Assembly: GCA_021824045.1 (NCBI GenBank) | Contig: JAKALR010000003.1 | Location: 1 to 54,677 of the forward strand | Direction: 5' to 3' | Origin: a bacterium | GTDB lineage: Bacteria; Patescibacteriota; Minisyncoccia; UBA6257; GWB1-50-10 | DNA: 54,677 nt | Shown: piece after piece, positions 31,382-45,826 of the stretch | How positions within the stretch are numbered: position 1 is the stretch's first letter | Layout of the letters: each line of letters opens with the position of its first letter | Made by a program: the position numbers and the translations under genes | The notes under the pieces: generated by a model | Databases searched by the model: none | Told to the model about the DNA's origin: nothing | The model's input: the letters and a program-made list of their open reading frames with translations, nothing else

Positions 31382-32485
31382 CTATTCGAAATATCTCTCG
31401 GCCAAACCGATTGCCGTCGGAAATTCATTGTTCAACTGGCGGAGAACGGGTTCCAAGCTCAAATTATACGAAACTTTCCTGAAGACGTTCGGCTTCGTTC
31501 CCCGAAGGCCGGTCTGCTTCGTAAAATATTTCTCGATGCCGATGAGGTTCGCGCCACCACCCACGAGCATGATTTTTTTCGCTTCCCCGCCGTACCGTCG
31601 TTGATACACCTCTTTCACATGGTTTACTTCTTGTATTATAACATCCAGGAACGGAATAGTTAATGTTGATAACTCCGACTCCGGCCCTTCGGAGGATAAT
31701 CCCCGCCGCCGCTTCAATTCCTCGGCGCGCATCGTCGTGATGCCGAGGCTCCGCGCGACCGATTGGGTCAGATGAATCCCGCTGTAATCCGTGCCGCCGA
31801 CGTATTCCAGACGCCCGCGGGAAGCGACGAAGATTTCCGTTTCCTCCGCTCCGATATCGACGATGATCGTTTCATCCTCGCCCGCATCAATCAGGCTCCG
31901 CGTCATCGCCAATCCATTGAACTCGAGCGACACGAGCCGAAGCCCCGCCTCCCGGAAGATGTTTTTATACTTTTGAATGAGCTTTTTTGAGATGCCGACG
32001 ACGAAGATGTGTTGAAATTTTTGCCGGGCATCGGTTCCGAATTCGTCGATCTTCAACCAATCGATCAGGGCTTCCGAGACGGGCATCGGGATGTACTGCG
32101 GCGCCTGAAACAGAACCGCCTTGGCCGTCTCTTCGCGGGACATGAGGGGCATATCAATCACCGTGGCGAACGAGGCAAACGAAGGGATCGACGCGATCGC
32201 GAGATTGGTTTTCGGTTTCACTTCCCACACGAGCGTTTTCAACATATTCGCCGTTTCCCTTTCTTCGATCGGCAGGGAACTCGTTTGGATGGCCTTGTTG
32301 GGGTGGTTCAAGTAATCCTTGGTTTCCAGAATCCCGTAATTCGCGAGATTCAATTTGCCGCCGGTCTCGCTGATTTCCGCGAGCTTGATCGAGGCGGTTC
32401 CGATATCGACGCCGAGGATCGCTCTCCCCTTGAAAAAATTGAGGACGTCGGTGAAAAAATCGGAGACGACGTTCGTGATCTTCAT
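31382..32485 (-). CDS. pilM: Type IV pilus assembly protein PilM
   Basis: GVDIGTASIK, VDIGA..T, LVGGGANL, AIGLA. Confidence 0.9.
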   Translation of the reverse strand: MKITNVVSDFFTDVLNFFKGRAILGVDIGTASIKLAEISETGGKLNLANYGILETKDYLNHPNKAIQTSSLPIEERETANMLKTLVWEVKPKTNLAIASIPSFASFATVIDMPLMSREETAKAVLFQAPQYIPMPVSEALIDWLKIDEFGTDARQKFQHIFVVGISKKLIQKYKNIFREAGLRLVSLEFNGLAMTRSLIDAGEDETIIVDIGAEETEIFVASRGRLEYVGGTDYSGIHLTQSVARSLGITTMRAEELKRRRGLSSEGPESELSTLTIPFLDVIIQEVNHVKEVYQRRYGGEAKKIMLVGGGANLIGIEKYFTKQTGLRGTKPNVFRKVSYNLSLEPVLRQLNNEFPTAIGLAERYFE

Positions 32486-32617
32486 CCCGTTAGAAACAAA
32501 ACGCCTTTTTCATAAGCGGCTGCCTATGATGCGCGGTTAATTCGACTTTGTCGGCGATTATCCTTTTCATAAGTTTATGGTTTCTCACGGGATTCATTGT
32601 CTTATAATAATACCATC

Positions 32618-33373
32618 ATGGGGGAATTTGGTGAACTCGTGAATCTCATCGCGGATGCGGTCTTCCCGCCGCTTTGCCTTTCGTGCGAGAACATTCTCGG
32701 AGAGAACGAGAAGGTTCTCGCGATCTGCGGCGAATGCCTCGGTCGATTCGAAATCGGGAACGGTTTTTTCTGCCCGATCTGCCGACGAAGGTTGCCGGAA
32801 CCGAACGTGACGTGCCACAATAACGCGCGGTTTGTGCTGGCTTCGCCACTCTCCTTCGAGAACCGGGCAGTCCAGAAAATCATCCACCTCCTGAAATATC
32901 GGCACATCACGAAAGCGGCGACACCTCTCGCCTTTTTCACGGTATTTTACCTGACCACAATCTCGAGCATGAGGAGTGCCGGCCCGGAGGATTTCGTCAT
33001 GCTCCCGGTCCCGCTCCACAGATCAAAAGAACGGAGGCGGGGGTTCAATCAGGCGCTCCTCATCGCGCGGGAGATTCAGCGGCTCGCGGGAATGCTCGAC
33101 CGGGAGAAGAGGCTCCCCTCTTTCACGATCGAATCCGACGTCCTCGCGAGGGTGAAAAAGACCGCGTCGCAAACCAAGCAGAAAAACCGCGACGAGCGGA
33201 GAAGAAACGTGGAAAACGCCTTTGTTCTTACGGACAAAGCGAAAATAGAACGGAAGAACATCATGGTGGTCGATGACGTTTTCACATCCGGTGCCACCAT
33301 GGGAGAAATCGCGAAACTGCTCAAGGCAAACGGCGCGGTGAAAATCATCGCCCTGACTGCCGCGAGGACCTAA
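32618..33373 (+). CDS. comF: ComF family competence protein (phosphoribosyltransferase-like)
   Basis: FPP.C..C, PVPLH...RRRGFNQA, VDDVFTSGAT. Confidence 0.9.
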   Translation: MGEFGELVNLIADAVFPPLCLSCENILGENEKVLAICGECLGRFEIGNGFFCPICRRRLPEPNVTCHNNARFVLASPLSFENRAVQKIIHLLKYRHITKAATPLAFFTVFYLTTISSMRSAGPEDFVMLPVPLHRSKERRRGFNQALLIAREIQRLAGMLDREKRLPSFTIESDVLARVKKTASQTKQKNRDERRRNVENAFVLTDKAKIERKNIMVVDDVFTSGATMGEIAKLLKANGAVKIIALTAART

Positions 33374-34827
33374 TTTTCCTGGAATATCTTCGAGGAGCGC
33401 CCTACGTTCGCGCAATCAGAATTCTTCAAACACTGGCCGCTGCTTCCCCAGCCGGTTTGCGTCGTCGAGGTCGCGATGCAAACATTGTTGTCAATGCAAA
33501 GCCCCGTCGATTCTTGAGTCGTCATGTCGGGAGTCGCCGTCCGCGCGCCGGCATAGTTGGACCAGCCATTGCTGCCAGTGCCACCGGTGCAGTACGAACC
33601 GCCGTGGGGGCCGCCCTGGTAGCACAGTTCAACCCGGTACGCATACACGGTCCCCGGTGCGAGATTCGTATCGGTGTAGGAAGGCGCGGCGGTCAGCTTC
33701 GTTGACGTTCCGGCATTCGTGAAGTAATCATTGATGGCCACTGGGCCGCCGGTCGATTGCGCTTCAGCCGTGCCATTCATCATGTCGGCAATGCGGTTGA
33801 ACGCGCTCCCCACGGACGAAAAGATCGATCGGAGTGCATTGGAAACGGCGACAAACACATTGCTACCGCCGTAGGATACCGGACTTGCGATATTCCCCGC
33901 CACGATCGGATCGGTGCAAACGGAATCCGGCGCGCCAAGGCCGTCGGAGCGCAGCCAATCGATGCCGATGAACGAGCAATTTTGGATGCCGTAGTAATAA
34001 GAAAGACCCGGAGCGAACGGCCCCTTGTCGGTTAAGGAAATTTGCTCGCTCGTCGGACCGGCAGACGGGGTAAGATAGTTCGTTGATGTTCCACTGAATA
34101 CCGTCGTCCACACCGATGGGTCGTTCCACGTGCTTGTCGAAGGTGTTATCCCGGCAGATGTCGTAGTGGATGATTTCAAAATCGTATAGAACGGTGTGTT
34201 TCCGGTTTGCACCGTGAAATCAACATCGATCCCCTGGGAAGGGTTCTTCAGGACGTCGGGCGCCGTCGGCAGTGCCGGCGTCACCTGGATGCGCTGAATT
34301 TCGAAGTACCTCGAGGGATCAGTTGAAGTTGAATTGTCTTTCCAGTTCAAGAAGAGGGCGGTTTGTCCCCTTGAATAGACATTGAGGTTCGACGGCGTCT
34401 GGTTCGCGATAGAAAGCGTCGCGGCGCAAGCGTTCGTCGAAGACGAGGTGTTGTCATTGTACTTCGTCGTCAGCGTGTAGCAATAGGTCGTGTTCGCGCT
34501 GAGGCCGGTTTGCTGGAACGAGGTGACGGTTTTTTGGGAGACCAGCGTCGTTGCCGGCAGGGGCGAGGTTTGATTCAGCGTAAAGACGGGGCTCCGGGCC
34601 GACGTTCCGTACCAGGTTACCGACATGGTGTCGACGCTCGGCGCGAGGTAGAGCACATAGGGAGTTTCATTGCCGCTCGAAGCGCTGAGCGTTGTTGTTG
34701 TGGCGATATTCGAATCGCAGTACGTCGCCGTACACGAACCGGCGGCGCGCGCGCTCGAAACGGCAAAACCGCCCGCGAGAGCCAGGAGGCCGGATAGAAC
34801 AATTAAAGAAAATTTCCTCCCTGTCAT
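33370..34827 (-). CDS. Secreted Thr/Ser-rich fibronectin type III-domain protein
   Basis: Signal peptide; GLSANTTYCY, LNWKDNS, TDTNLAPGTVYAYRV; Cys-rich C-terminus. Confidence 0.75.
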   Translation of the reverse strand: MTGRKFSLIVLSGLLALAGGFAVSSARAAGSCTATYCDSNIATTTTLSASSGNETPYVLYLAPSVDTMSVTWYGTSARSPVFTLNQTSPLPATTLVSQKTVTSFQQTGLSANTTYCYTLTTKYNDNTSSSTNACAATLSIANQTPSNLNVYSRGQTALFLNWKDNSTSTDPSRYFEIQRIQVTPALPTAPDVLKNPSQGIDVDFTVQTGNTPFYTILKSSTTTSAGITPSTSTWNDPSVWTTVFSGTSTNYLTPSAGPTSEQISLTDKGPFAPGLSYYYGIQNCSFIGIDWLRSDGLGAPDSVCTDPIVAGNIASPVSYGGSNVFVAVSNALRSIFSSVGSAFNRIADMMNGTAEAQSTGGPVAINDYFTNAGTSTKLTAAPSYTDTNLAPGTVYAYRVELCYQGGPHGGSYCTGGTGSNGWSNYAGARTATPDMTTQESTGLCIDNNVCIATSTTQTGWGSSGQCLKNSDCANVGRSSKIFQEN

Positions 34828-34876
34828 CTTTATTATTATAGCAAATCAAGGCTTAATTATTATTGTTCAAAAACAA

Positions 34877-34916
34877 AAAACGCCATCATGTACCACAAAG
34901 GGTAATGATGGCGTAC
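34877..34916. terminator. Hairpin downstream of rSAM-1
   Basis: acgccatcat...atgatggcgt inverted repeat with an A-run flank. Confidence 0.55.
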
Positions 34917-34925
34917 GTTCGTGTT

Positions 34926-36002
34926 TTAGTTGCGATCAGATTTTAATTCGTCCAATCTGGCAGTAATGTACCGAAATGTCTCCTGGTAGGCGTGGCAGAA
35001 TGGTATATTGCCGTCATATCGCCCAGAAAACCAGAAAGCTTCCGAGCGGCAACCTCCTCTGCAAATCGGCAAGAATTCACAATTACCACAATTGGCTTTT
35101 ATGTGCTCGTCACGCATTTCCCGTAGTTTTTTAACCGAGCTATTGTTGAGTATTCTAAGAAGTGGCTCATGAAAAATATTGCCGAGCACAAATTCATTCA
35201 GGGCCAATGAGCCGCAGGGCACTACTTTCCCGCTTTGGGTGATAGTTATCATCCTTTTAAGACAGACTTCTGAGAATGAGCACAGTGTCGGTCTTGAACC
35301 GAGTAGTGACCGCAGGATGTTATCGAGTGGTTGAATTGAGGAAAAATTGTTCTCGGTATACATCCATAGATTAAACACATCTCTGTAGAGATCAAATATT
35401 TCTTCATCGCTCGGCAGGAGAGGTTTGGTCGCCAGTGGAACAGATTTTAATGGCAAGAGAGAAAAAGAATCGACGCCAATTTCCTTGAATAAATCGAAGA
35501 TTTCATGACTACGTCTGACATTGAGTTTGCTTATCACGCAGAGCGTTCTCAGCGGCAATCCATGCTGTTTGATAAGTTCGCATATGCCAAGCATTCTTTC
35601 CGGTTTGACACCCCGGTGGATCTCGCAAATTTCCAATGGGGCATCGAAACTCAAGCCAAGGTGGAAATCATTCTCTTTGAGGAAATCGAGCCAGCGATCG
35701 TCAAGAAGCGTGCCATTGGTTTGTATAGTGTTCCTAAACACAATGCCGCGTTTCTCTTTCTCCTTCTTCTCTGCGTCTAAAATCTTACTAAAGAATTCCA
35801 TGCCAACACTTAAGGGTTCGCCACCGAACCAACAAAAATCTACATTATCGAAGCCGAGAGAGCAATTCTGAATAAGTGTTCCCAGGTTTTTCGCATCAAA
35901 TCTACTTTTTTTATCCTGAGATGTGGCTGCGTGGCAATAGCTGCAATGTAAGTTACATGCAGAGGTTGTCATGGCTATGACTGTTGCCGATCTTTGTGGC
36001 AT
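34926..36002 (-). CDS. Radical SAM/SPASM peptide maturase 1 (anSME-like scaffold)
   Basis: CNLHCSYC, WFGGEPL, QTNGTLLD; SPASM C.F...C...VVPC...GNI...CGNCEFLPICRGGC. Confidence 0.88.
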   Translation of the reverse strand: MPQRSATVIAMTTSACNLHCSYCHAATSQDKKSRFDAKNLGTLIQNCSLGFDNVDFCWFGGEPLSVGMEFFSKILDAEKKEKEKRGIVFRNTIQTNGTLLDDRWLDFLKENDFHLGLSFDAPLEICEIHRGVKPERMLGICELIKQHGLPLRTLCVISKLNVRRSHEIFDLFKEIGVDSFSLLPLKSVPLATKPLLPSDEEIFDLYRDVFNLWMYTENNFSSIQPLDNILRSLLGSRPTLCSFSEVCLKRMITITQSGKVVPCGSLALNEFVLGNIFHEPLLRILNNSSVKKLREMRDEHIKANCGNCEFLPICRGGCRSEAFWFSGRYDGNIPFCHAYQETFRYITARLDELKSDRN

Positions 36003-36014
36003 TTCCTCACCCCC

Positions 36015-36215
36015 CTACGTATCAACGTAATATTCATGAGATGGAGACTCAATATAATACTGATGGAAATCAGTGTTGGCGCATCCGCTCTTTCCTTCAA
36101 TGACGCTCTTGATGATGCGTTTCACTGGGAGCGACACGTCGGATAATTTTTCCTCGGATATCTTACTTGCATCCAAGGTTACATTATCAGTAGCATCAAA
36201 CAACTCTTTCCTCAT
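36015..36215 (-). CDS. Putative RiPP precursor 1 (66 aa, tandem HxYY[IV][ED] core)
   Basis: AAGGAG RBS; 12 nt upstream of rSAM-1; core ...DFHQYYIESPSHEYYVDT. Confidence 0.7.
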   Translation of the reverse strand: MRKELFDATDNVTLDASKISEEKLSDVSLPVKRIIKSVIEGKSGCANTDFHQYYIESPSHEYYVDT

Positions 36216-36325
36216 GTCACACTTCTCCTTTTGGGATTTTTCTTCGTTACGGTTTTTTCAGAGAATCTGGACATTCCAAATTGTCCAAGGATCTGGTATT
36301 ATTATAACATAAACTAGACACTCGT

Positions 36326-37363
36326 GTGAAGATTATTTTAAAACTGAGCAAAACGGCCAATTTCTTCTTTTTCGTCAGTAATCTGTCGGAATGGCACTTT
36401 TCCTGCCGAAAAACATACAACGAGGCGTGGCTTAAAAAAACCGGGCCGCTCAAAGCCGAAGAAAAAAAAGTATTGTTATTATTCAAGAAAATAATGAAGC
36501 GGCGCGGATTTTCCCGAGACAAAGATTGGCAAAGTGAATATCTCGGCAAATATTTCTATCTGTTTCCAAAAGAGAGCGTTTGGAGGGAACTTAAAAAAAC
36601 TGCAAGCGAAAAGGAAATACAGCAGTTGAAAATGATCTTTGACGTCGTGCGTCCCCGGTTTGAAAAGATATGGAAATCGTATGATCCCGGGAAGAGAGTA
36701 TCTATCATCGAAAGATATATACACAGCAGGCTCTATACAAAACTTCTGGATGATTTGGGGATGGTTTTCGGAGGAAAAAAGAGTATGCTTGAGAAACTCA
36801 ACGTCGTCATTATCGTTTCCCCTCTCGGCAAAGAGACGACAGCGGCCGGCGGAGCAAACACGGGCCCAAGCAGCATAACCCTCGAACTTCCCAGCCTGAG
36901 ACCAAAGACTTGGCAACTGGACTTTTCCGCGATGATTCTCGCCCATGAAATAGCCCACAGTCTCTTTGAAAGACGCGGTGGTGCCGAACTTATTTCAAAA
37001 TCCATCACGAGATTGAGATTACCAAAAACAATCAAAAATCTTCCCGAAGGATTCAGCACCATGCAGTTGATCAACGAAGCCCTTACGGGAAGTTTCGTGC
37101 CACTCGGTTACTTTGGTCAAAAGTATACCCAATTCAGATTAGCCCCGCTTTTGTTAAACGATTTAAACAAGGGTCTCATTGGTTATCAAAAACTGTCATG
37201 CGGAGAGAAGATAAACTATTACAATGAATTGGAATATTATCTCATCCCCAGCTTGTATTCTCTCGCAATCATCTATGGGAGGAATAAAAAATCAATCGAC
37301 CGGAATTTCGTTCTTGAGGTAGCGAAAACTATAAAAACCTCTCTGCGCTACCGTTCACCGTAG
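36326..37363 (+). CDS. HExxH metalloprotease-like protein
   Basis: ILAHEIAH plus downstream NEAL third-ligand-like motif; stop codon supplied by the 65-bp repeat. Confidence 0.6.
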   Translation: MKIILKLSKTANFFFFVSNLSEWHFSCRKTYNEAWLKKTGPLKAEEKKVLLLFKKIMKRRGFSRDKDWQSEYLGKYFYLFPKESVWRELKKTASEKEIQQLKMIFDVVRPRFEKIWKSYDPGKRVSIIERYIHSRLYTKLLDDLGMVFGGKKSMLEKLNVVIIVSPLGKETTAAGGANTGPSSITLELPSLRPKTWQLDFSAMILAHEIAHSLFERRGGAELISKSITRLRLPKTIKNLPEGFSTMQLINEALTGSFVPLGYFGQKYTQFRLAPLLLNDLNKGLIGYQKLSCGEKINYYNELEYYLIPSLYSLAIIYGRNKKSIDRNFVLEVAKTIKTSLRYRSP

Positions 37364-37396
37364 CGCCTCACTTTCTCCCATATGGGAAAAAGTGAA
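37332..37396. repeat. 65-bp double-hairpin repeat A, copy 1
   Basis: Identical to 39810-39874; contains gcgctaccgttcaccgtagcgc and tcactttctcccatatgggaaaaagtga palindromes. Confidence 0.9.
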
Positions 37397-37398
37397 AT

Positions 37399-37453
37399 CC
37401 ACTGCACGGTGAAACCATTTGCCGAAACGGCGGTCGTTGTCACACCGGTCGGC
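37399..37453 (-). pseudogene. 55-bp relic of the FN3 C-terminus of the 47607-49787 surface protein
   Basis: Encodes PTGVTTTAVSANGFTVQW, matching PTGVTTTAVSANSFTVQW at ~47793-47848 with mostly silent changes. Confidence 0.75.
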
Positions 37454-37517
37454 CTGTTTGTTAAAGTTTTCGCATGCTCCCAATAAGCGGCAACGGAGCG
37501 TGATACACTTATTACAT

Positions 37518-38192
37518 ATGGAGTTGATTCTTATCCGACACGGCGAAACCAAAGAGGGCAAAAAGGGGATTTTATTGGGACAACTTCCGGGTACATTGAC
37601 GGCCAAGGGGCGCAGGTTTGCCGACGAAGTCGGTCGCGTGATCGCCGGATTTTCATATCGCTCCCCGCTTATTATCGCAAGTGATTTAGAACGATCAAAA
37701 GAAACCGCGCGCGCCATTGCGCGGATTACGCACGCGCCTTTAAAATGTGATAGATTGCTCCGGGAACGGAACGGAGGCATCGACGAGGGGAAAAAAGAAA
37801 GTCAAATAAATTGGAAAGAATATGAAAGGAGGCCACTCGCCTATCGCCGGCACGAAGGGGGAGAAAGTTTTGCTGATGTTAAGAAGCGAGCGAGCGCATT
37901 TCTGGAAAAAATACAAAAGGAAAAGCATTCACCGATCATTATTGTTTCCCATCAAGCGCTTATTTCCACGCTGCTCTCAGAACTTTTTGGTTGGAGCTAT
38001 CCAAAAGCCCTTAAGTTTGATCTTAAAAACAAGTTGGTCATTGTGAATACAAAAAAACGGGAGTGGACGAAATCACACTCCCGTTTAAGGATTGTTCTAG
38101 TTGATATGAGAGTATCATTGCTCGGTTATTATCGTGTGCAGCTTATGAGCAATAATATCACGAATCATGGCACATCGATCGACAGGAAATGA
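37518..38192 (+). CDS. Histidine phosphatase (phosphoglycerate mutase family)
   Basis: LIRHGET, SDLERS.ETA, LRER..G, GES, VSH; 3' end overlaps rSAM-2 by 78 nt. Confidence 0.85.
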   Translation: MELILIRHGETKEGKKGILLGQLPGTLTAKGRRFADEVGRVIAGFSYRSPLIIASDLERSKETARAIARITHAPLKCDRLLRERNGGIDEGKKESQINWKEYERRPLAYRRHEGGESFADVKKRASAFLEKIQKEKHSPIIIVSHQALISTLLSELFGWSYPKALKFDLKNKLVIVNTKKREWTKSHSRLRIVLVDMRVSLLGYYRVQLMSNNITNHGTSIDRK

Positions 38193-39368
38193 GCTAAACC
38201 AGTCACCGTTCTTGGAATAAACACATCCGCCCCGACAATGCCATTTTGCAAAACATGTCGCACAGCCGGGCATGTTCAAAACGTGGAACTGACGAACTGA
38301 TTCAACTGATTCATCGCGAATCGTGACGCCCCGATCGGTCACCATGCCGATTTCGAACGATTTGGCAAATGCGCTTTTGTCATTGAAAGAAATGGTGCAC
38401 GCAGAGATGGTACCGTCCGGTGACACCGAATAGTTGGGAATTGGCACAGAACATGGAAATGGCGACACCGAATGAATATCAGTACCCGTCAGATTGATAT
38501 CCATACCTTTTGCGCGGTAATCTTTCCACAATTCGAAGTATGCTTTTCCAAGCGCGGCATAATCAACAGTAGATTTGCCTCCAAGGGCTCGACCGAGATT
38601 TTCTTTAAGGCTGAGAAAGATATGTTTCACACCATATGTATACATCTCATCGACAATCTCCCGAAGATGTCCACTGTTCGACTCAGAAACTACCACGAGT
38701 ACGCTCATTGGAACGTTGTTCTCGAGAAGAAAACCAATGTTTCCCCACACGCGTCTTGCAATCTGCGCGTTGCCACCATATCTGAGGTTTTTGTCTCCGA
38801 AACCATCCCAGGAAACTTGCACTTCCTTCATGTCACCAATAATTCTGGTAAATTTCTTGCGACTAAAAAGGCCGTTCGTGAGAAGACGAGGTATTAACTC
38901 AGTTTTTGCTCCCAATCTACTTCTAGCATATGCGATCGTCTTTTCTATGAATGGTGTGCGTAACGTTGGTTCTCCGCCTGAATAGACTATTTCTAGAAAC
39001 TTGGCGCCGGTTTCTTCGGCGAATTTACAAAAACCGTCGATCGCGTTCTTTGCAATTACCTCCGGCATGTCTGTCACAGGACCGCTATCGGCCCGCACAC
39101 TGCAATAACGACATTCTAAATTACAACCAGTCGTTATGTTGAGACGAAGACGAATCTTTTCTTTGTCGAACACAAACCCCTTATTGCGGATAAAGTCGGG
39201 AACGTTTTTCATGTCCGATGCTTCCTTTAGCCATTCTTCATCGACATCTTCTAGTGTAATTATACCGTCATAGACGGTAAAAAATCTGGTCAGAGGAGCA
39301 TAAAAGAGCGTCTGACCATCGAGGTGGATTGCGTACACCTCTTCTCTTAGTAACCTTTCGTCCAACAT
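38115..39368 (-). CDS. Radical SAM/SPASM peptide maturase 2
   Basis: CNLECRYC, SGGEPTL, TNG, SWDG; SPASM CSVP...PDG.ISAC...CATCFAKWHCRGGC. Confidence 0.88.
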   Translation of the reverse strand: MLDERLLREEVYAIHLDGQTLFYAPLTRFFTVYDGIITLEDVDEEWLKEASDMKNVPDFIRNKGFVFDKEKIRLRLNITTGCNLECRYCSVRADSGPVTDMPEVIAKNAIDGFCKFAEETGAKFLEIVYSGGEPTLRTPFIEKTIAYARSRLGAKTELIPRLLTNGLFSRKKFTRIIGDMKEVQVSWDGFGDKNLRYGGNAQIARRVWGNIGFLLENNVPMSVLVVVSESNSGHLREIVDEMYTYGVKHIFLSLKENLGRALGGKSTVDYAALGKAYFELWKDYRAKGMDINLTGTDIHSVSPFPCSVPIPNYSVSPDGTISACTISFNDKSAFAKSFEIGMVTDRGVTIRDESVESVRQFHVLNMPGCATCFAKWHCRGGCVYSKNGDWFSSFPVDRCAMIRDIIAHKLHTIITEQ

Positions 39369-39415
39369 TGTAGTCTCCTTTCTACTCCCTGATCTTATTT
39401 TTCAGATAAAATGCA

Positions 39416-39444
39416 GGGGGTTAGAATCAGAAATTCCAACCCCC
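39416..39444. terminator. Stem-loop between precursor 2 and rSAM-2
   Basis: gggggttagaat...attccaaccccc. Confidence 0.55.
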
Positions 39445-39450
39445 AACAGG

Positions 39451-39567
39451 CTACTTCGACAGGATGCGTGTATTTGAACAGCAACCGAATGTCGAAGCGC
39501 GATTTCCGTCGGAAATCTTGCCCGAGACAACTTTTTTGGGCTTTTTTACAACAGCAATCTTTTTCAT
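39451..39567 (-). CDS. Putative RiPP precursor 2 (38 aa, not in ORF track): MKKIAVVKKPKKVVSGKISDGNRASTFGCCSNTRILSK
   Basis: GGGAGG RBS, ATG at 39567, TAG at 39453-39451; upstream TTGACA-16 nt-TATATT promoter; co-oriented just upstream of rSAM-2. Confidence 0.7.
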   Translation of the reverse strand: MKKIAVVKKPKKVVSGKISDGNRASTFGCCSNTRILSK

Positions 39568-39809
39568 TGCCTCTTCCTCCCTTCTTACCTAATATTCCCG
39601 CACTCCAATTGGCTGAAATCCACCCTGGATTTCATTTAACTTTATTGAACCAAAAGCGCGTGAAAATATGTAGGGTTTTTTGTTTAAAGACTGATATTAA
39701 TATAATATCATTGATCATCTTGTCAAGGGCCTCGGATTGAACCGGGGATCTAGCGGCGATCAGTATTTTGCTGATATCACTTGGGACATATGAGAGAAGT
39801 GGGTATCAT

Positions 39810-40043
39810 TAAAAACCTCTCTGCGCTACCGTTCACCGTAGCGCCTCACTTTCTCCCATATGGGAAAAAGTGAAGCAACTGGTTCAAAACATACGATCGC
39901 ACAAAGTGTACCAATAGCAAGGATAGGCGAAGAAGCAGTGCTACAAAATATGCGATCGTTGAATTTGTAGCACAGGAGGGCGGCCGGAAAATAAAGAACA
40001 CCGTCAGCACATTGAGCGCTGGCGGTGTTTACATACACTCTTC
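39810..40043. repeat. Composite repeat block: repeat A copy 2, repeat B, repeat C and a terminator shared with 45715-45810
   Basis: 39876-39922 = 42850-42896; 39930-39983 = 42921-42974; 39948-40043 nearly equals 45715-45810. Confidence 0.88.
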
Positions 40044-40064
40044 AGACATTGAAGAAGGTCCTTT

Positions 40065-41633
40065 CTACTTAAGGAGATTCATCTTCTTCGTCTGGACGAA
40101 GTTGCCGGCCTGGAGACGGTAGAAATAGACACCTGAAGCTAAGCTTGATCCGTTGAATTGGACCGAATAGCTTCCGGGGCTCTTTTCTCCGTCAACCAAC
40201 GTCGCAACTTTTTGTCCAAGAACGTTGAAAATGGTCAGGTTAACGATAGTTCTTTTTTGGACCGAGAATTGAATGGTCGTTGTCGGGTTGAAGGGATTCG
40301 GATAGTTCTGGAGCAATGTGAAAGTTGCCGGGCCGTGTGAAGGCTCATCGACGCCGGTCACGATCTTGAAGGACCATGACGCGGAGTCCGATGCTCCTGA
40401 AGCATCGCTCACGACAACGGAAACCGTTGTCGCCGACGAGATCTCCCTGAAGGTATATATCAGGGAATCGCAACCGGCAGAAACAACGTTGCCGTTCACT
40501 TTCCAGGTATAGGAAAGTGAATCGCCGTTCGGGTCCGTTGCCGCAACCGAGAAGGTCATCGGCACGTTGACTCCAACAGAGTCCATCGAGGATGGCATTT
40601 GGGATGCGATCTGAGGAGGCGAAACGACACTGAGCGTCAGGATATAAATGGAACCATTGATGTTTGCCAAGAGATGCGTGCTGTCGAGCTGCATCATGGC
40701 GCCTATCTGGTAACCTTTGAATCCGAAAACGCTCCATGTCGCACCGTTGTCGGTCGAGCGGAACAAGCCGTCGCTCACGATGTTGTTGCCATCACCCACG
40801 AACAATCCGAGATTGCTCGAAGCGAGAATGCTGGGATAACTAACGCCTACCGGAGTAGTTGGCACGGGAACTTTTTGCCAGGTTTTGCCGTCGTCGGTGG
40901 ATTTATAGACTCCTGCATCTTTCGTCGCCGCGAAGACTGTGCCATCTGATGCTTCTTCGAAATTCTCAACGCAATCCAGATCAGCACCATCTCCCGTCGG
41001 CAAACCGCTCGCTATGTTCCATGTGAAACCGTTATCGGTTGATCGGTAAACACCGTACCACTGAGGACTTATTCCCCCAACCCCCATTAGAACCGTGCCC
41101 TTGCTTGTGGTAAACAAACTCGCTGCAGTATTCCAATGGAAAGGAGAATTATCGGTAATAGAACTCCAGGTTTGGCCGTCATCAATGGATCGATAGAGAG
41201 AATCTTGTCCACCGCTGATGATTGATCTATTGGGTGCTACCGTGAAATAACGTCCAGCTTTCGTTGCGATGGTTTCCCATGCGCTTCCTCCATCTATCGA
41301 CCTTCCAAACACACTCCCCAATCCTGTCGCAAGTAGTGTTCCCGAGTCGGTAACTCCCAAAGCAAGAGTGATACCGCCGCTGAACTTAAGGTTCAGAGTC
41401 TGCCACGTTTTCCCGCTATCCGAGGAACGAATGAGATTGTTGGTGCTCGTCTGTCCCACGATATACTCACCGCTTCTCACGAAACGATAAATATAGGAAA
41501 AGTTACTGACATTCATGGTGTCAACCGGGAATACGCGGATCTGATCTGTGATCATCAGCCCCCTGGTCCCTTGTCCGAGAACAATCGCTGCAATGCTCAA
41601 AAGGAGCATTGCGATCATCATCAAACGTTTCAC
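40065..41633 (-). CDS. Secreted BNR/Asp-box beta-propeller protein with Ig/PKD-like domain and T9SS type-A (Por) C-terminal sorting domain, paralog 1
   Basis: Signal peptide; many RS.D.G.TW repeats; tail LLQNYPNPFNPTTTI...IFNVLGQ...SGVYFYRLQAG...KKM.LLK. Confidence 0.85.
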   Translation of the reverse strand: MKRLMMIAMLLLSIAAIVLGQGTRGLMITDQIRVFPVDTMNVSNFSYIYRFVRSGEYIVGQTSTNNLIRSSDSGKTWQTLNLKFSGGITLALGVTDSGTLLATGLGSVFGRSIDGGSAWETIATKAGRYFTVAPNRSIISGGQDSLYRSIDDGQTWSSITDNSPFHWNTAASLFTTSKGTVLMGVGGISPQWYGVYRSTDNGFTWNIASGLPTGDGADLDCVENFEEASDGTVFAATKDAGVYKSTDDGKTWQKVPVPTTPVGVSYPSILASSNLGLFVGDGNNIVSDGLFRSTDNGATWSVFGFKGYQIGAMMQLDSTHLLANINGSIYILTLSVVSPPQIASQMPSSMDSVGVNVPMTFSVAATDPNGDSLSYTWKVNGNVVSAGCDSLIYTFREISSATTVSVVVSDASGASDSASWSFKIVTGVDEPSHGPATFTLLQNYPNPFNPTTTIQFSVQKRTIVNLTIFNVLGQKVATLVDGEKSPGSYSVQFNGSSLASGVYFYRLQAGNFVQTKKMNLLK

Positions 41634-41782
41634 TTTCTTAACGCTCCTTTCGAGTTTTTATCGGTGAAACAACCGTTATGAACTTTATTTACAATCTAAG
41701 GGAAGATTCCTTAGTCTGGTTATATTATACCACAAACAACGAAAAAAGGCAAAAATATTGATTTCCCTTTATTAATGCGGAT

Positions 41783-42376
41783 TTATTGGAGCAATCCCCT
41801 AATGAAGATATTGTACGTCGTCGAGGCATTTAGACCACTAATTCCGAGGGTTTGGGTCCCTGTTGCACTCAAAGCGCTCTGGAGATTCGAGGGGATGGGA
41901 TAGGATTGATAGCAACTGGGATTATTGGCCGGATTCGGCGTACTCGACGGACAAATATTAAAGTTTGGATCCTGTGCACTAAAAAGGTAGATCCCCATCT
42001 GCTTATACGACTGCGGGTTGGTCCATTGCACGGTGAAACCGTTGGAAGTGACGCTCGCGGAAGGGATCGTGACATTCGTCGGCCACTGGTTGCCGCCGGT
42101 CACGTTTGCCGTCGTGACGCAGTAGCTCGAACCGCACCAGGACATTTGTCCCAGGACGTTCACCGGCGTTGTGGGGGTTTGTCCCCCGAAGTTGCCAGTC
42201 GAGGGGTTGTAGGAGATGTCGCTCAAATCGACGAGTCCGTTCCAAGAGCTATTGCTTCCGTCGCCGAATGAAAGGAATTTAGCCTCGCCGGAAAGTTTCC
42301 CCGTCGACGAATCTATCTTGGGGGCTTGGCCCGACGGCACATCGGAAGGATTGAACGACAGCCAGCCATAGCCGCC
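41783..42376 (-). pseudogene. Orphan (startless) alternative C-terminus of the 47607-49787 surface protein
   Basis: GYGWLSFN...TPTTPVNVLGQMSWCGSSYCVTTANVTGGNQWPT shared with the full-length gene, followed by a different FN3 end; no signal peptide or good start. Confidence 0.75.
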
Positions 42377-42568
42377 CTATTTCTTCAATTTTTGTATACC
42401 CAAATCTTGGCAGATTTTCTCTGCTAAGAAATTATTAATCTCCTGATGGCGCGGTACCGTCGAAACCCTTCTGGTTTCGGGATTAAAAAAGACGCTGTGT
42501 CTAGCGCCCTCGCGTACAAAAACGCAACCTTGTTTCATGATGTGGTTTATAAGATCGCGTCTCTTCAT
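42377..42568 (-). CDS. hicA: HicA-family toxin
   Basis: MKRRDLI.H....GC.F.REGARH...VPRH.EI. Confidence 0.88.
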   Translation of the reverse strand: MKRRDLINHIMKQGCVFVREGARHSVFFNPETRRVSTVPRHQEINNFLAEKICQDLGIQKLKK

Positions 42569-42780
42569 AAAGACACGAAAATCGGTTCTCTTAAGATTTT
42601 GGAGTCGGAGCTCTTAACCAAAAACTTGCCCGTTTCCAGAACAAGCACCAGAGCTTCCTTGAGGTTTTCTTTGGCTTCTTTTAGCGTGCGGCCCTGAGTA
42701 TTAACGCCGGGAATTTCTTCTATCCATGCGGAGTACCATTTTCCAGTTTTTTTATAAACGGCTGTAAATTGTCGGCTCAT
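42565..42780 (-). CDS. hicB: HicB-family antitoxin (short, no DNA-binding domain)
   Basis: EEIPGVNTQGRTLKEAKENLKEAL; ATGA overlap with hicA. Confidence 0.88.
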   Translation of the reverse strand: MSRQFTAVYKKTGKWYSAWIEEIPGVNTQGRTLKEAKENLKEALVLVLETGKFLVKSSDSKILREPIFVSL

Positions 42781-42849
42781 AATACTTCAATAGTATCATA
42801 GATTTATTTAAAAACAAGCGTATATTCGAACACTTGCCGGATTTTGGAA

Positions 42850-43113
42850 CAACTGGTTCAAAACATACGATCGCACAAAGTGTACCAATAGCAAGGGTGG
42901 GCAAAGAGGCAGCGCTACAAAAGAAGCAGTGCTACAAAATATGCGATCGTTGAATTTGTAGCACAGGAGGGCGGTTCAAAAGAAAGAAGGCTGACATATG
43001 CAGAGCATAGTCATCCTTCGAAAATCCGATTCCTAAAGAGGAATCCGAACCTTCTTTTTTGCAATCAATGAAGTATTGGCACAAAAAAAGACGATCGCAC
43101 CAAGCGTACCAAT
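42850..43113. repeat. Second copy of repeats B and C plus a degenerate B copy at 43091-43113
   Basis: caactggttcaaaacatacgatcgcacaaagtgtaccaatagcaagg; gtgctacaaaatatgcgatcgttgaatttgtagcac; acgatcgcaccaagcgtaccaat. Confidence 0.8.
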
Positions 43114-43185
43114 GAGACACTCGGAAAACAAAGAACCATAGGTTGATATTATTATAATACAAGTCGGGAACCAAAAACGCCTCCA

Positions 43186-43905
43186 TTAAATTGATTTTGC
43201 GCAAATAAAGTATATCCTGTCGGAGACTTCTGACGCGCGGTCACCGTTCCCATCAATGACGTCAACCCCTTTAAACATTTTCTTAAGGGATCTCTCAATC
43301 TCTATGATAGGGAATGAACATTCTTTTATATTCTCGGAACTTACCACCTCCCCACCGTTTATGCCGCCCTTCATAACCTTAATGTCCCAGTTATAAATCT
43401 CCATTTCTTTTATCACACTTATCACCACTCTCCCATCGTTGAGTATTCTTATTATTGGATTCGATTGAGTTAATTTTTCTAACTTCTGCCGCGTATTAAT
43501 ATCAAAGATAAAAATACCCCCACCATTTAAATGGCGATAAGCACGAGAAAATGCATGCTCCCAATTTTCATAATTCAGTAGGTGGTTCATGGTATCGAAT
43601 ATACACAAAACGACATCATATCTCCCGGAGAGAGAAAAATTTGATATATCCTGATGAGATAAGTGAGCATTGGGGACTTTCTGTCGCGCAATTGAAAGCA
43701 TTTCCTCCGATGTGTCAATGCCAACAACAGAGTATCCGAGATCAGAGAAATATTCTAAAAACATTCCTGTTCCGCACCCTAATTCTAAGATGGTTTTTGC
43801 TTGTGGATTGTATTTCTTAATTAATTCTTCGATAAACTTTTCTCCATTTTTCCTATCCCCCATCGCGGAATCATAAAATTTAGCAAAAGCCCCGTAGTTA
43901 GTCAT
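43186..43905 (-). CDS. Class I SAM-dependent methyltransferase
   Basis: ILELGCGTG, GIDTSEEML, L..GGIFIFD. Confidence 0.88.
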   Translation of the reverse strand: MTNYGAFAKFYDSAMGDRKNGEKFIEELIKKYNPQAKTILELGCGTGMFLEYFSDLGYSVVGIDTSEEMLSIARQKVPNAHLSHQDISNFSLSGRYDVVLCIFDTMNHLLNYENWEHAFSRAYRHLNGGGIFIFDINTRQKLEKLTQSNPIIRILNDGRVVISVIKEMEIYNWDIKVMKGGINGGEVVSSENIKECSFPIIEIERSLKKMFKGVDVIDGNGDRASEVSDRIYFICAKSI

Positions 43906-43945
43906 ATCCCTATTTTACACTCTCGCAAAAGAATTGAGAAACAAA

Positions 43946-43971
43946 AGAGCTCATCGATATAAGATGAGCTC
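43946..43971. terminator. Hairpin after rSAM-3
   Basis: gagctcatc...gatgagctc with A-run flank. Confidence 0.55.
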
Positions 43972-43988
43972 AGTGCTACCAAAAATAT

Positions 43989-45368
43989 TCAGAGAGCAAA
44001 GCCATACTCCCTGAGAAGAGGGGCAACCTTTCTCTTAAAGAAAGAGACCGCCAAGCAGGCATAGTCGTCTTTCGCGTTGTAAAAATCACCGTGGAGAAAA
44101 TAAGCATTTGCCCGACATCCCGTGCCACAGAGTTCTCGCAGTTTGCATCCTCTGCAACCAGCAACATCGCCGATCTTCACCGTTTTTACCTCGCGCATTT
44201 TGTCGGAGTACCAAATATTCCAAATTGATGATTGTTTAATATTACCAATCGGCAATTCAGAACAGTAGGCACAGGAAACGACATCACCGTTCGGTTTCAC
44301 GCAACATTCGGACCTACGACCCTCATAATCACAAACGAAATCGTTATCCGTAAGTTTCTGGAAACCTTGTTCAAAGAGCTGTTCCCTGAACAAATATTCA
44401 ATTTGCAAGTGAAACGGCATGCCGTTCGCCAAATGTCGCCGCAAAAGGACTAAACAGCGCTCGGCAATAATACCCCATTCTACGTTGAATGTTGCGCGGT
44501 AATTCTTGAACTCCGGCGTCATCTTGGGAAAACCAAGTCTCCAACTGCTCACACTCATCCTTTTCACCAGATCATACATTGCATCAAGATGATCAATATT
44601 CTCCATGTTCACCACGGTGTTCACGACTACACTGATCCCTTTTGAGGTTAATAGCATAATGTTCCGCACTATGCGCTCGAGCACTTTCCTGGAATCCTTA
44701 CTGGAGAAACCCCGAAAGGAAAAGTCCACGCCGGGGATCGAATCAAGGCTGACAAAAAGCGAGAACTGACTGCGCAACTCCTGGACCGCCTGGATGAACC
44801 TGCCGTTTATCAACAGACCGTTCGAGAATATCGCAGAAATTCTCATCTTTCTCTCCTCGATGGCTGATAGCACATCGGCAAGCCGGGACATCATCAACGG
44901 CTCGCCGCCACTGATCCCGATGTTATTTACCTGCATGCCCTGCAAATCATCAAGAAGGCGAATAATCTCGTCGAAGCTCAACTCTTCGCCGCTCTTGACA
45001 TATTCAGCTTGATAGCAGTGAACGCATTTCATATCGCACTTACCGCTCGCTTCTAGATGGACTGCCTCAAGTCTTCTGTCCGGCACTTGATTTCTCCCGA
45101 GAACTCTTGGCGCGGATGCATTAGTAAATTCTACAGCTGAGATATTTTTCAGTTGATCAATGAATTGTAATACATCAACCCTCGAGGTTTTGGCGTATTG
45201 TTTGAGTATCTGTTCCACAGTGTTCGTGCCGTCAAGTGACTGGAGGAATTCAACCTGGTCGGCAGTCAACTCATAGGTAGTACCATTCCGCAAACAATAA
45301 AGAGTGCTCATTGATGTGGAATGCTTCAGTGTGAAATCGCCCGCTAACGAAACATATTGATTGGGCAT
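43989..45368 (-). CDS. Radical SAM/SPASM peptide maturase 3 with N-terminal RRE (PqqD-like) domain
   Basis: GAGGAGG RBS before MPNQYV; N-terminal ..YEL....EFLQSLDG..TVEQI winged-helix pattern; CDMKCVHC, SGGEPL; SPASM C...PNGDVVSC...GNI...CRGC.LRELCGTGCRA. Confidence 0.88.
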   Translation of the reverse strand: MPNQYVSLAGDFTLKHSTSMSTLYCLRNGTTYELTADQVEFLQSLDGTNTVEQILKQYAKTSRVDVLQFIDQLKNISAVEFTNASAPRVLGRNQVPDRRLEAVHLEASGKCDMKCVHCYQAEYVKSGEELSFDEIIRLLDDLQGMQVNNIGISGGEPLMMSRLADVLSAIEERKMRISAIFSNGLLINGRFIQAVQELRSQFSLFVSLDSIPGVDFSFRGFSSKDSRKVLERIVRNIMLLTSKGISVVVNTVVNMENIDHLDAMYDLVKRMSVSSWRLGFPKMTPEFKNYRATFNVEWGIIAERCLVLLRRHLANGMPFHLQIEYLFREQLFEQGFQKLTDNDFVCDYEGRRSECCVKPNGDVVSCAYCSELPIGNIKQSSIWNIWYSDKMREVKTVKIGDVAGCRGCKLRELCGTGCRANAYFLHGDFYNAKDDYACLAVSFFKRKVAPLLREYGFAL

Positions 45369-45420
45369 ACGAGCCTCCTCTTTTTTAAAAGTACTTAACG
45401 TACAAAAACTATAGAATAAT

Positions 45421-45450
45421 GGGTGGAATGCTTTTGAGAACACTCCACCC
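45421..45450. terminator. Stem-loop between precursor 3 and rSAM-3
   Basis: gggtgga...tccaccc. Confidence 0.5.
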
Positions 45451-45469
45451 CCGCTGGAGCCGAGTGAAA

Positions 45470-45589
45470 CTACGAACCCGGCGCACTGGCGTTCAGGGCC
45501 TGCGTCAGTCTTACCTGAAGCACCCTCTTTTTGAGTAAAGAGTTTTTCAGGACCTTCTGACCGGCCCCTTTTACCAGGGGCTTTTTCAT
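45470..45589 (-). CDS. Putative RiPP precursor 3 (39 aa, not in ORF track): MKKPLVKGAGQKVLKNSLLKKRVLQVRLTQALNASAPGS
   Basis: GAGAGG RBS, ATG at 45589, TAG at 45472-45470; upstream TATAAT; same layout (peptide, hairpin, rSAM) as cassette 2. Confidence 0.62.
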   Translation of the reverse strand: MKKPLVKGAGQKVLKNSLLKKRVLQVRLTQALNASAPGS

Positions 45590-45714
45590 AACAGCCTCTC
45601 TACAGTTTTTGTTAAGCAAGTAACTTCACAGAAAAGCCTGCAAATACCAATTACCTGCCCTATGATTATAATAACACAAAAATAAACCATTCGTAATAAA
45701 AACGCCGCCTCGCT

Positions 45715-45810
45715 ATATGCGATCGTTGAATTTGTAGCACAGGAGGGCGGCCGAAAAATAAAGAACACCGTCAGCACATTGAGCGCTGGCGGTGTTTACA
45801 TACACTCTTC
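45715..45810. repeat. Right half of repeat C plus terminator, shared with 39948-40043
   Basis: atatgcgatcgttgaatttgtagcacaggagggcggccg...aacaccgtcagcacattgagcgctggcggtgttt. Confidence 0.85.
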
Positions 45811-45826
45811 CATTGAAGAAGATCTC

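Follow-up and report, generated by a model that had tools for sequence, protein, structure and literature searches.

A conserved precursor, radical SAM/SPASM and HExxH gene cassette of Patescibacteria as a candidate cyclophane-type peptide pathway

Genes and features of the cassette

The stretch of DNA analysed here (the window, 54,677 nucleotides (nt), contig JAKALR010000003.1) is contig C29 of a 611,871-base patescibacterial genome, which consists of 32 contigs and has a completeness of 97.68%. Between positions 34926 and 37363 it carries three genes that we describe as a putative cassette for a peptide synthesised ribosomally and modified post-translationally (RiPP): a small precursor gene, a gene for a radical S-adenosylmethionine (rSAM) enzyme with a SPASM domain, and a gene for a protein with an HExxH motif. 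Their positions and the features within and around them are as follows.

34926-36002, minus strand: rSAM/SPASM maturase, 358 amino acids (aa), without a RiPP recognition element (RRE), resembling the anaerobic sulfatase-maturating enzyme (anSME) and DynA (Pfam, NCBIfam, alignment and comparison with the PDB)
36015-36215, minus strand: precursor peptide gene, 66 aa, with leader, variable linker and C-terminal core (ATG, Shine-Dalgarno sequence)
36018-36065, minus strand: core peptide, residues 51-66, with both hexamers around Pro58 (pattern count and column counts)
36102-36134, minus strand: conserved leader motif, residues 28-38, [SP]-x-P-[VLI]-x-x-[IVL]-[IVL]-x-[ED] (column counts, n = 61)
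36301-36330, minus strand: promoter-like site, TTCACA-18-TATAAT with extended -10 TG (11 of 12 consensus positions; consensus match only)
36326-37363, plus strand: HExxH protein, 345 aa, unnamed zincin-like family, putative leader peptidase (sequence, models and gene context)
36944-36958, plus strand: HExxH motif, residues 207-211
37332-37396, no strand: 65-nt repeat with a palindrome, covering the final 32 nt of the HExxH gene and marking the cassette boundary

An AAAGGAG ribosome site lies 9 nt upstream of the precursor ATG, and the rSAM gene starts 12 nt after the precursor stop on the same strand, each gene having its own Shine-Dalgarno sequence. The promoter-like site is situated about 85 nt upstream of the precursor start. 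The two hexamers that the sequence-only reading of this locus had noticed, HQYYIE and HEYYVD, are indeed present at precursor residues 51-56 and 60-65 with an offset of 9 (starting at window bases 36065 and 36038), and so is the segment VKRIIKSVIEG at residues 31-41, which it had assigned to the leader and which overlaps the leader motif conserved in the family. Translated in six frames, the window has 109,350 residues, and the pattern H.YY[IV][ED] occurs in them twice, each time in the precursor open reading frame (ORF), compared with 0.011 matches expected by chance from residue composition. Scanning the precursor against Pfam and NCBIfam gave zero families.

The precursor family

The search anchored on the rSAM gene, with one genome per species, yielded five close loci (L004-L008, 44-51% identity), and metagenome contigs anchored on the HExxH gene added five further loci with a close rSAM gene (L089, L092, L093, L095 and L096). 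Alignment of precursors from the neighbourhoods of maturase homologues, which had been put forward as a check on the sequence-only reading, came out in favour of the precursor. In 10/10 close loci with readable upstream DNA, a count that takes in the window and leaves out L096 with its 36 nt of upstream sequence, the rSAM gene is preceded on the same strand by a homologous short ORF at a distance of 10-88 nt. A GGAGG-type ribosome site stands ahead of nearly all of these ORFs, and the ten peptides can be aligned end to end (alignment A3).

The A3 profile was then searched against 1.84 billion representative proteins and gave 61 matches at E <= 0.001. Fifty-seven of them are 49-81 aa long; the remaining four are long proteins with repetitive partial leader matches and were set aside. 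Column counts were made over 61 distinct sequences, comprising the window peptide, the 57 short matches and three additional locus peptides; the counts draw on representatives at 50% identity taken without genomic context. The counts for the core, in window numbering, are listed below.

Position 51: H 57, Y 4 of 61
Position 53: Y 36, H 23 of 61 (aromatic in 59/61)
Position 54: Y 29, W 18, H 14 of 61 (aromatic in 61/61)
Position 56: D 58, E 3 of 61 (acidic in 61/61)
Position 58: P 55 of 61
Position 59: R 28, S 21 of 61
Position 60: H 35, Y 24 of 61
Position 61: D 38, E 20 of 61
Position 62: H 51, Y 6, K 3 of 61
Position 63: Y 21, T 14, H 10, W 8, S 7 of 61
Position 64: R 37 of 61
Position 65: D 42 of 61

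The family core reads H-x-[YH]-[YWH]-x-[DE]-x-P-x-[HY]-[DE]-[HY]-x-R-D and is a degenerate two-fold pseudo-repeat around a near-invariant Pro. The twice-repeated HxYY[IV][ED] by which the sequence-only reading had characterised the precursor is present in the window, but it does not hold as a family motif: the strict repeat is peculiar to the window's own branch and recurs in one representative, P0147. Ser occupies position 55 in 21/61 sequences and position 59 in 21/61, and neither Cys nor Ser is conserved at any core position. In the leader, Pro is found at position 30 in 50/61 sequences and Val, Leu or Ile at position 31 in all 61, followed by Ile, Val or Leu at position 34 in 57/61 and at position 35 in 56/61, which gives the shorter consensus P-[VLI]-x-x-[IVL]-[IVL]. 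The linker between leader and core is variable in length and composition. Four loci whose rSAM is about 30% identical (L107, L114, L115 and L116) keep the central aromatic-x-D-x-P-x-aromatic segment, and three others (L105, L133 and L153) have Trp/Asp/His-rich cores without Pro.

The 66-aa ORF is thus supported, at the level of sequence, as a genuine and conserved RiPP-type precursor. Because of the gene arrangement and its conservation, we consider it very probable that this is a RiPP cassette in which the rSAM enzyme takes the precursor as its substrate and modifies it.

The radical SAM/SPASM maturase

The maturase contains a Radical_SAM domain (PF04055, residues 12-163, 62.1 bits) and a SPASM domain (PF13186, residues 248-309, 39.4 bits), both above cut-off. 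As the former starts at residue 12, there is no room for an N-terminal RRE in the 358-aa protein. The CxxxCxxC core together with a SPASM domain bearing auxiliary-cluster cysteines identifies it as a member of the rSAM/SPASM superfamily. In the SPASM region, C241, C247, C263, C305, C308, C314, C318 and C336 are invariant in 36/36 aligned sequences, namely the window protein (P0001) and 35 relatives (P0002-P0036). These relatives were retrieved from an index of 5.8 billion proteins at E <= 1e-86 with 42-80% identity, and the next matches drop sharply to 1e-50 and below. Judged by these similarities, the maturases are a small, distinct subfamily.

The best NCBIfam model was anSME (TIGR03942) with 203.7 bits against an equivalog cut-off of 349.45, and the second was DynA (NF041298) with 180.3 bits against 450. 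Lower ranks were taken by other anSME models and then by TIGR04083, GrrM/OscB, DarW, AmcB, DarE and YhhB, all under their cut-offs; for the cyclophane synthase models the values were 125.2 against 310 (GrrM/OscB), 120 against 425 (AmcB) and 81 against 445 (YhhB). All 36 maturases matched the anSME model plus those of DynA, DarW, DarE, GrrM/OscB, AmcB and YhhB, and the XyeB model was matched by only 4/36. The enzyme is thus related to the characterised cyclophane synthase families (XyeB, GrrM/OscB, AmcB, YhhB and FxsB) without reaching the cut-off of any of them. The nearest solved structures were anSME (198 bits), the rSAM domain of ChlB (105 bits) and CteB (90 bits). An anSME-like rSAM enzyme without an RRE had been recognised here from the letters alone, and that description stands.

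As anSME is both the best hidden Markov model and the best PDB match, the gene might be taken for a true anaerobic sulfatase-maturating enzyme next to a spurious short ORF. This account is already contradicted, and we regard its chance as practically nil. The score of 203.7 bits lies far under the equivalog cut-off, and the short ORF is kept across phyla, its sequence, its position and its ribosome-binding site alike. Moreover, the sulfatase model PF00884 gave 0 matches in the 97.68%-complete genome, while 10/14 control genomes were positive. Co-occurrence with sulfatases had been set beforehand as the outcome that would speak against a peptide substrate; since no sulfatase was found and the neighbours are peptides, the maturase goes with peptides rather than with sulfatases.

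Association of the HExxH gene with the cassette

In the HExxH protein, H207, E208 and H211 are invariant in 17/17 family members. The family has an invariant N-terminal segment of its own of about 35 residues. Outside the HExxH helix, the 17-member alignment further shows that the Arg R111 and several acidic residues do not vary. About 43 residues past the HExxH motif there is an N-E motif, which we take to resemble the third-ligand motif of gluzincins; its Glu is kept in 15/17 members. Pfam and NCBIfam scans of the protein gave zero families at cut-off, and only 16 relatives were found in the 5.8-billion-protein index.

The HExxH gene adjoins the rSAM gene in 4/5 rSAM-anchored loci. Of the 75 metagenome loci anchored on the HExxH gene, 52 match over 250 residues or more, and an anSME-like rSAM was counted at 100 bits or more. 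When at least 1300 bp of downstream DNA were present (38 of the 52 loci), such an rSAM was found in 27, and in 23 of these it is convergent and immediately downstream with gaps of 33-486 nt. When at least 1500 bp were present on both sides (19 loci), it was found in 10; these loci are biased towards the HExxH gene, and many of the contigs are short. The link between the two genes is thus frequent and non-obligate. The identities to the window's HExxH and rSAM proteins rise together over 33 loci (Spearman 0.71), for which shared genome descent could also account. The family occurs in 12/401 sampled genomes of the phylum, among them the source genome (G000), and was absent from all genomes listed for the same order or class. 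This patchy spread suits an accessory cassette.

Conceivably, the HExxH gene often lies nearby while serving a role apart from the cassette, for instance as a general peptidase for several RiPP systems or as a housekeeping enzyme. In line with that view, no rSAM was found in 9 of the 19 fully assessable loci, the homologue in L084 adjoins a YcaO-nitroreductase gene instead, and L005, from a Bacteroidota metagenome-assembled genome (MAG), has precursor and rSAM with no HExxH gene within reach. In the window the gene is indeed divergent (36326-37363 on the plus strand, the precursor being on the minus strand), as the sequence-only reading had said, and this upstream, divergent placement also differs from the usual convergent downstream one. 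However, the adjacency in 4/5 rSAM-anchored loci, the tight convergent arrangement in 23/38 loci, the correlated identities (shared ancestry could do the same) and the rare, patchy distribution all argue against an independent role, which we consider very unlikely. The earlier statement that the protein may be a protease or unrelated can be narrowed: recurring in 4/5 and 27/38 loci, it is more than a chance neighbour, and the peptidase side is favoured, although not settled.

Several neighbourhoods of the HExxH gene deserve description. A 748-aa nitroreductase-YcaO fusion (PF00881 + PF02624) adjoins the HExxH homologue in both L007 (404-3693) and L084 (637-3868). In L007, a DUF2268 predicted Zn-protease (111 bits) lies beside the nitroreductase-YcaO gene, and precursor and rSAM are also in the locus. 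In L084, a 289-aa ORF takes the place of the DUF2268 gene and the HExxH gene directly follows the YcaO gene; there is no rSAM or precursor, as if the pair had been lost or never inserted. In the HExxH-anchored locus L091, the HExxH homologue is complete, whereas of the rSAM only the last ~80 residues are left next to it (5040-5279; residues 273-353 are matched at 47% identity), which looks like a decayed cassette. In the compared regions L006:2040-7932 and window 31382-37363, the cassette adjoins comF-like (Pribosyltran + DZR_2) and pilM genes, with an rve-family integrase between cassette and comF in L006; the two either share a site of insertion or have inherited the arrangement. In 2/9 related loci scanned (L008:573-2426 and L093:2182-3924), the cassette has an ABC exporter (ABC_membrane + ABC_tran) beside it.

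Fold of the HExxH protein

The AlphaFold (AF2) model built from the 17-row alignment reached a mean local confidence (pLDDT) of 89 and a predicted template-modelling score (pTM) of 0.88. The final residues, in the region overlapped by the 65-nt repeat, are unmodelled, with a pLDDT below 50 for 342-345. The HExxH motif is placed in a predicted helix (196-216) and the Glu of the N-E motif in another (245-255). With the exhaustive structural aligner VIA-align, the top matches were catalytic domains of M1/LTA4H/M61 aminopeptidases, with Z 7.7-6.6 over 180-215 residues. The structure neighbours in the ESM Atlas carry the automatic names DUF2268 (TM 0.80), DUF4932 and M61. Similarly, the weak Pfam matches fall exclusively in metallopeptidase families (SprT-like in 5/17 members; reprolysin, M48 and M32), none of them at cut-off.

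Comparisons of the family profile with PDB sequences gave only matches at E >= 0.12, to Wss1 and a lipoprotein of the zinc metallohydrolase type, and these lay around the HExxH helix. The hhalign comparisons with the DUF2268 protein of L007 (404-1246; probability 0.3%) and with a Peptidase_MA_2-like neighbour (2.4%) likewise aligned the HExxH helix only. When the HExxH protein and the precursor, each entered as an alignment, were modelled as a complex, the score was 0.02 against a mark of 0.32, which has no bearing on binding. Structure prediction had been proposed as the way to tell a gluzincin from an enzyme of the alpha-ketoglutarate (aKG)-HExxH type; the outcome, with M1/M61 domains ranked first, leans towards a zincin-like, peptidase-like protein nearest to M1/M61 aminopeptidases without settling the matter.

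The main rival explanation is that the partner is a zincin-fold Fe(II)/aKG oxygenase like ChlB-H, BpmH or PflC, which would beta-hydroxylate Asp or His of the crosslinked core or cleave the backbone oxidatively. Enzymes of the aKG-HExxH type occur together with the rSAMs of triceptide systems, and the residues that they hydroxylate are Asp and His of a cyclophane already in place (PMC12636437). Asp, His and Tyr dominate the present core, and the invariant R111 and acidic residues outside the HExxH helix could serve co-substrate binding. In addition, the HExxH domain of ChlB (8s5f; Z 5.6, root-mean-square deviation 4.5, 181 residues, rank 18) and the aKG-HExxH enzyme SjiH (22ob; Z 5.1, rank 28) were among the structural matches, both in the aligner's grey zone. 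On the other hand, the aminopeptidase domains ranked higher, and the ESM Atlas neighbours are peptidase-like families. The NCBIfam aKG-HExxH model, which we take to be TIGR04267, matched none of the 17 members at E <= 10, nor the window protein at E <= 0.01. A search of the HExxH family for longer, fused rSAM-HExxH forms found none, which is weak evidence. An oxygenase is unlikely in our judgement; we prefer a Zn-dependent leader peptidase, for which the odds are about even.

Proposed modification of the core peptide

We propose that the locus is a RiPP cassette in which the rSAM enzyme forms aromatic-to-C-beta rings and the HExxH protein removes the leader, and we assign this whole reading a probability of roughly 50%. 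The 66-aa precursor, with its helix-like leader motif, variable linker and 16-residue C-terminal core, would be the substrate. The RRE-less rSAM/SPASM enzyme would take a C-beta hydrogen within a three-residue motif, and the C-beta carbon would be bonded to the aromatic ring two positions upstream, giving a cyclophane with a loss of 2 Da per ring. A cytoplasmic HExxH metalloenzyme of zincin fold would then cut the leader ahead of the first ring. The resulting peptide would be small and rigid, with many His, Tyr and Asp residues, a composition that suggests a role in metal binding or host-cell interaction.

Ring formation of this kind is, in our estimate, somewhat better than an even prospect, and the His/Tyr crosslink suggested by the sequence-only reading is reasonable in the light of the enzyme's relatives. 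It is expected because the known small-peptide relatives of the enzyme form such rings and because the best-conserved i/i+2 pairs of the core are suitable for them. These pairs are 54/56 (aromatic and acidic, 61/61 each), 51/53 and 60/62. With Omega denoting an aromatic residue, the candidate rings would be Omega54-x-acid56 (61/61 sequences), H51-x-Omega53 and Omega60-x-Omega62, and two to four three-residue rings of -2 Da each would be expected. The link may be of the C-C type, as in triceptides, or run from a His nitrogen to C-beta. In dynobactin, a His nitrogen is reportedly joined to the Tyr C-beta on an H-x-Y triplet; a link of this type would fit residues 51-53 and 60-62. What defines triceptides is an aromatic-to-C-beta link within an Omega1-X2-X3 motif, and His-based rings are among them (PMC11499958). 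Cleavage occurs just before the first ring motif in characterised triceptides, and triceptide and daropeptide enzymes are of common origin (PMC12912966).

Alternatively, the rSAM enzyme could modify the peptide without an aromatic-to-C-beta ring, through epimerisation, dehydrogenation, side-chain oxidation or another link topology. Its best model and nearest solved structure belong to anSME, a dehydrogenase rather than a crosslinker, and it stays under the cut-off of every cyclophane synthase model. The anSME motif is C/S-x-P-x-R, in which the residue attacked lies two positions before Pro. The invariant acidic residue 56 lies two positions before Pro58, in what we take to be the register of the anSME target. 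Nevertheless, the core has neither a conserved Cys nor a conserved Ser and hence offers no conserved target for anSME-type formylglycine chemistry, which makes ring-free chemistry less likely. Moreover, all 36 members match the DynA, DarW, DarE, OscB, AmcB and YhhB models as well, and the most conserved core positions are aromatic and stand i/i+2 from conserved partners, which is the pattern of known substrates of rSAM cyclophane enzymes (PMC11499958). A modification other than an aromatic-to-C-beta ring therefore appears rather improbable.

Several points weigh against the proposed ring formation and leader removal. The position, number and type of the crosslinks are inferred, and the maturase falls under the curated cut-off of every named rSAM family. 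The core is filled with Asp and His, the very residues that aKG-HExxH enzymes hydroxylate in cyclophane peptides (PMC12636437). Every structural match of the HExxH protein, the two oxygenase-type domains among them, has a Z below 8 and thus lies in the grey zone of the aligner, and a Foldseek search of the model against the PDB gave zero matches at E <= 0.001, the best being an M61 aminopeptidase at E 0.076. The nine fully assessable HExxH loci without an rSAM and the L005 locus without an HExxH gene count on the same side, as does the lack of an exporter gene in the window's cassette.

Genomic setting

Genomes sampled from the same phylum measure 0.5-1.5 Mb. Three rSAM peptide-type cassettes lie within ~10.5 kb of this 612-kb genome, in a stretch with a G+C content of 0.43-0.48 compared with ~0.50-0.55 elsewhere. 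The neighbouring features are as follows.

37419-38192: cassette 2, histidine-phosphatase gene (PF00300)
38115-39368: cassette 2, 417-aa rSAM with a ~75-residue extension ahead of the Radical_SAM domain (best model PapB, 80 bits, under cut-off)
39451-39567: cassette 2, 38-aa ORF immediately upstream of the 417-aa rSAM
43186-43905: cassette 3, class I methyltransferase, after the 484-aa rSAM/SPASM gene
43989-45443: cassette 3, 484-aa rSAM/SPASM gene with an N-terminal extension of ~130 residues
40065-41633 and 45827-47473: two paralogous BNR/sortilin-repeat proteins among the rSAM cassettes, each ending in a sorting domain of type IX secretion (PF18962; 45.8 and 43.5 bits)
42377-42780: two small overlapping ORFs of 63 and 71 aa, with a HicA/HicB-type toxin-antitoxin look by eye (no family search was made)
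37332-37396, 39810-39983, 42845-42974 and ~45586-45805: repeated intergenic blocks framing the modules

Cassette 2 is flanked by identical 65-nt repeats (37332-37396 and 39810-39874), the second copy being 100% identical to the one that ends the first cassette. The palindromic part of the repeat has a CATATG centre and was also found on six other contigs, with a second site on one of them (C1, C17, C20, C25 with two sites, C26 and C28). A type IX sorting signal is unexpected for a Patescibacteria-type genome. More rSAM/SPASM genes lie within a few kb of the cassette in related loci as well (L004:2145-3452, L004:8468-9652 and L089:5247-6559), and the clustering of several rSAM peptide cassettes seems to be a recurring habit of these genomes.

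Named relatives of the cassette genes come mostly from Patescibacteria, also called the candidate phyla radiation, including Jorgensenbacteria, Azambacteria, Saccharibacteria and Paceibacterota. Members of the rSAM family were also found in Bacteroidota and Ignavibacteriota MAGs, which hints at a horizontal origin of the rSAM-cassette island. An Rfam scan of 33000-46000 gave zero RNA families and a terminator scan of 34700-37600 zero terminators. A search of sequencing runs returned four DNA runs from one study and no RNA run among the matches listed, a result without bearing on expression.

Comparison with known systems

The cassette resembles the triceptide systems built on enzymes that form three-residue cyclophanes (3-CyFEs; XncB/XyeB, OscB, HaaB, YhhB, HtkB and ChlB) in that a small precursor lies directly upstream of an RRE-less anSME-like rSAM/SPASM enzyme. 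Its core is built of aromatic-x-x triplets that include His and Tyr, which is a sequence prerequisite only. All 36 maturases match the OscB, AmcB and YhhB models of that group, yet the window maturase is under every curated cut-off. Like some triceptide systems, such as that of ChlB, it has an HExxH-type partner, but here this is a separate gene of an unnamed family and not a fused TIGR04267-type domain. Unlike the hosts of known triceptides, those of this family are mostly Patescibacteria. The core motif H-x-[YH]-[YWH]-x-[DE]-x-P-x-[HY]-[DE]-[HY] was not met in the triceptide literature examined.

DynA is the second-best NCBIfam model of the window maturase and is matched by all 36 members, although 180 bits are far from its cut-off of 450. 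The core also shares with daropeptides the Omega1-x-Omega3 triplets (PMC12912966), here in the form H-x-Y and H/Y-x-H/Y. Unlike the darobactin and dynobactin cores in the literature examined, it is acidic and His-rich; and in contrast to the DynA/DarE/DarW systems, the hosts are not Gram-negative enterobacteria and there is no sign of BamA targeting. With anSME (PDB 4K36-4K39), the maturase shares the nearest structure, the best model, an equal length, the absence of an RRE and the full set of SPASM cysteines. It differs in staying under the equivalog cut-off, in the lack of a sulfatase in the genome and in having a dedicated small peptide encoded upstream.

The HExxH protein shares with the aKG-HExxH hydroxylases (ChlB-H, BpmH and PflC/PosC; IPR026337) an HExxH motif on a zincin-like fold, the position beside a cyclophane-type rSAM and an Asp/His-rich substrate. 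It is unlike them in that none of the 17 members matches the family model, the structural match is weaker than that to aminopeptidases and the protein is unfused. It resembles the gluzincins (M1/LTA4H and M61) together with DUF2268 and DUF4932 in the HExxH motif on the active-site helix and, less firmly, in its best structural matches (Z below 8) and the downstream N-E motif. It differs from them in that it stays under the cut-offs of all Pfam and NCBIfam peptidase models, the alignment to DUF2268 covers only the HExxH helix, and the N-terminal segment is its own.

Novelty and significance

In the literature searched, we found no paper on this family and none that joins cyclophanes, radical SAM enzymes and Patescibacteria; the family could be included in subscription papers or in supplementary networks of the triceptide surveys. 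Such surveys are large, with ~3,900 pathways in one of them (PMC11499958), and a published similarity network of cyclophane synthases has 5,369 members; the maturases may sit unnamed in the networks of the surveys. The architecture of a precursor with an RRE-less anSME-like rSAM is a known plan of cyclophane RiPPs. As far as checked, what is new lies in the core motif, in the HExxH family encoded by a gene of its own and in the range of hosts. By its sequences, this is a conserved three-gene family, found mostly in ultra-small bacteria and apparently undescribed. It provides a defined peptide family of ~57 precursor clusters, ~36 maturase clusters and 17 partner clusters with clear core and leader motifs, and it places the maturase between anSME and the dynobactin and triceptide crosslinkers.

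Patescibacteria, with their minimal genomes, are thought to live on other cells, and the small molecules that they produce are nearly unstudied. A bolder idea, which we put forward as doubtful, is that these ultra-small epibionts keep a class of His/Tyr/Asp peptides stapled by rings and typical of their lineage. The makers would be an rSAM that derives from anSME and reads a register of acid-x-Pro, and a zincin-fold family not recognised before, and the rigid product would be metal-binding or host-directed. That zincin-fold family may stand in for the missing RRE when the leader is recognised, may cut the leader off, or may bring a new metal-dependent chemistry. If true, such a lineage-typical class of stapled peptides would account for three side-by-side rSAM cassettes in a 612-kb genome, and the family may give initial access to a patescibacterial factor that is secreted or binds metal.

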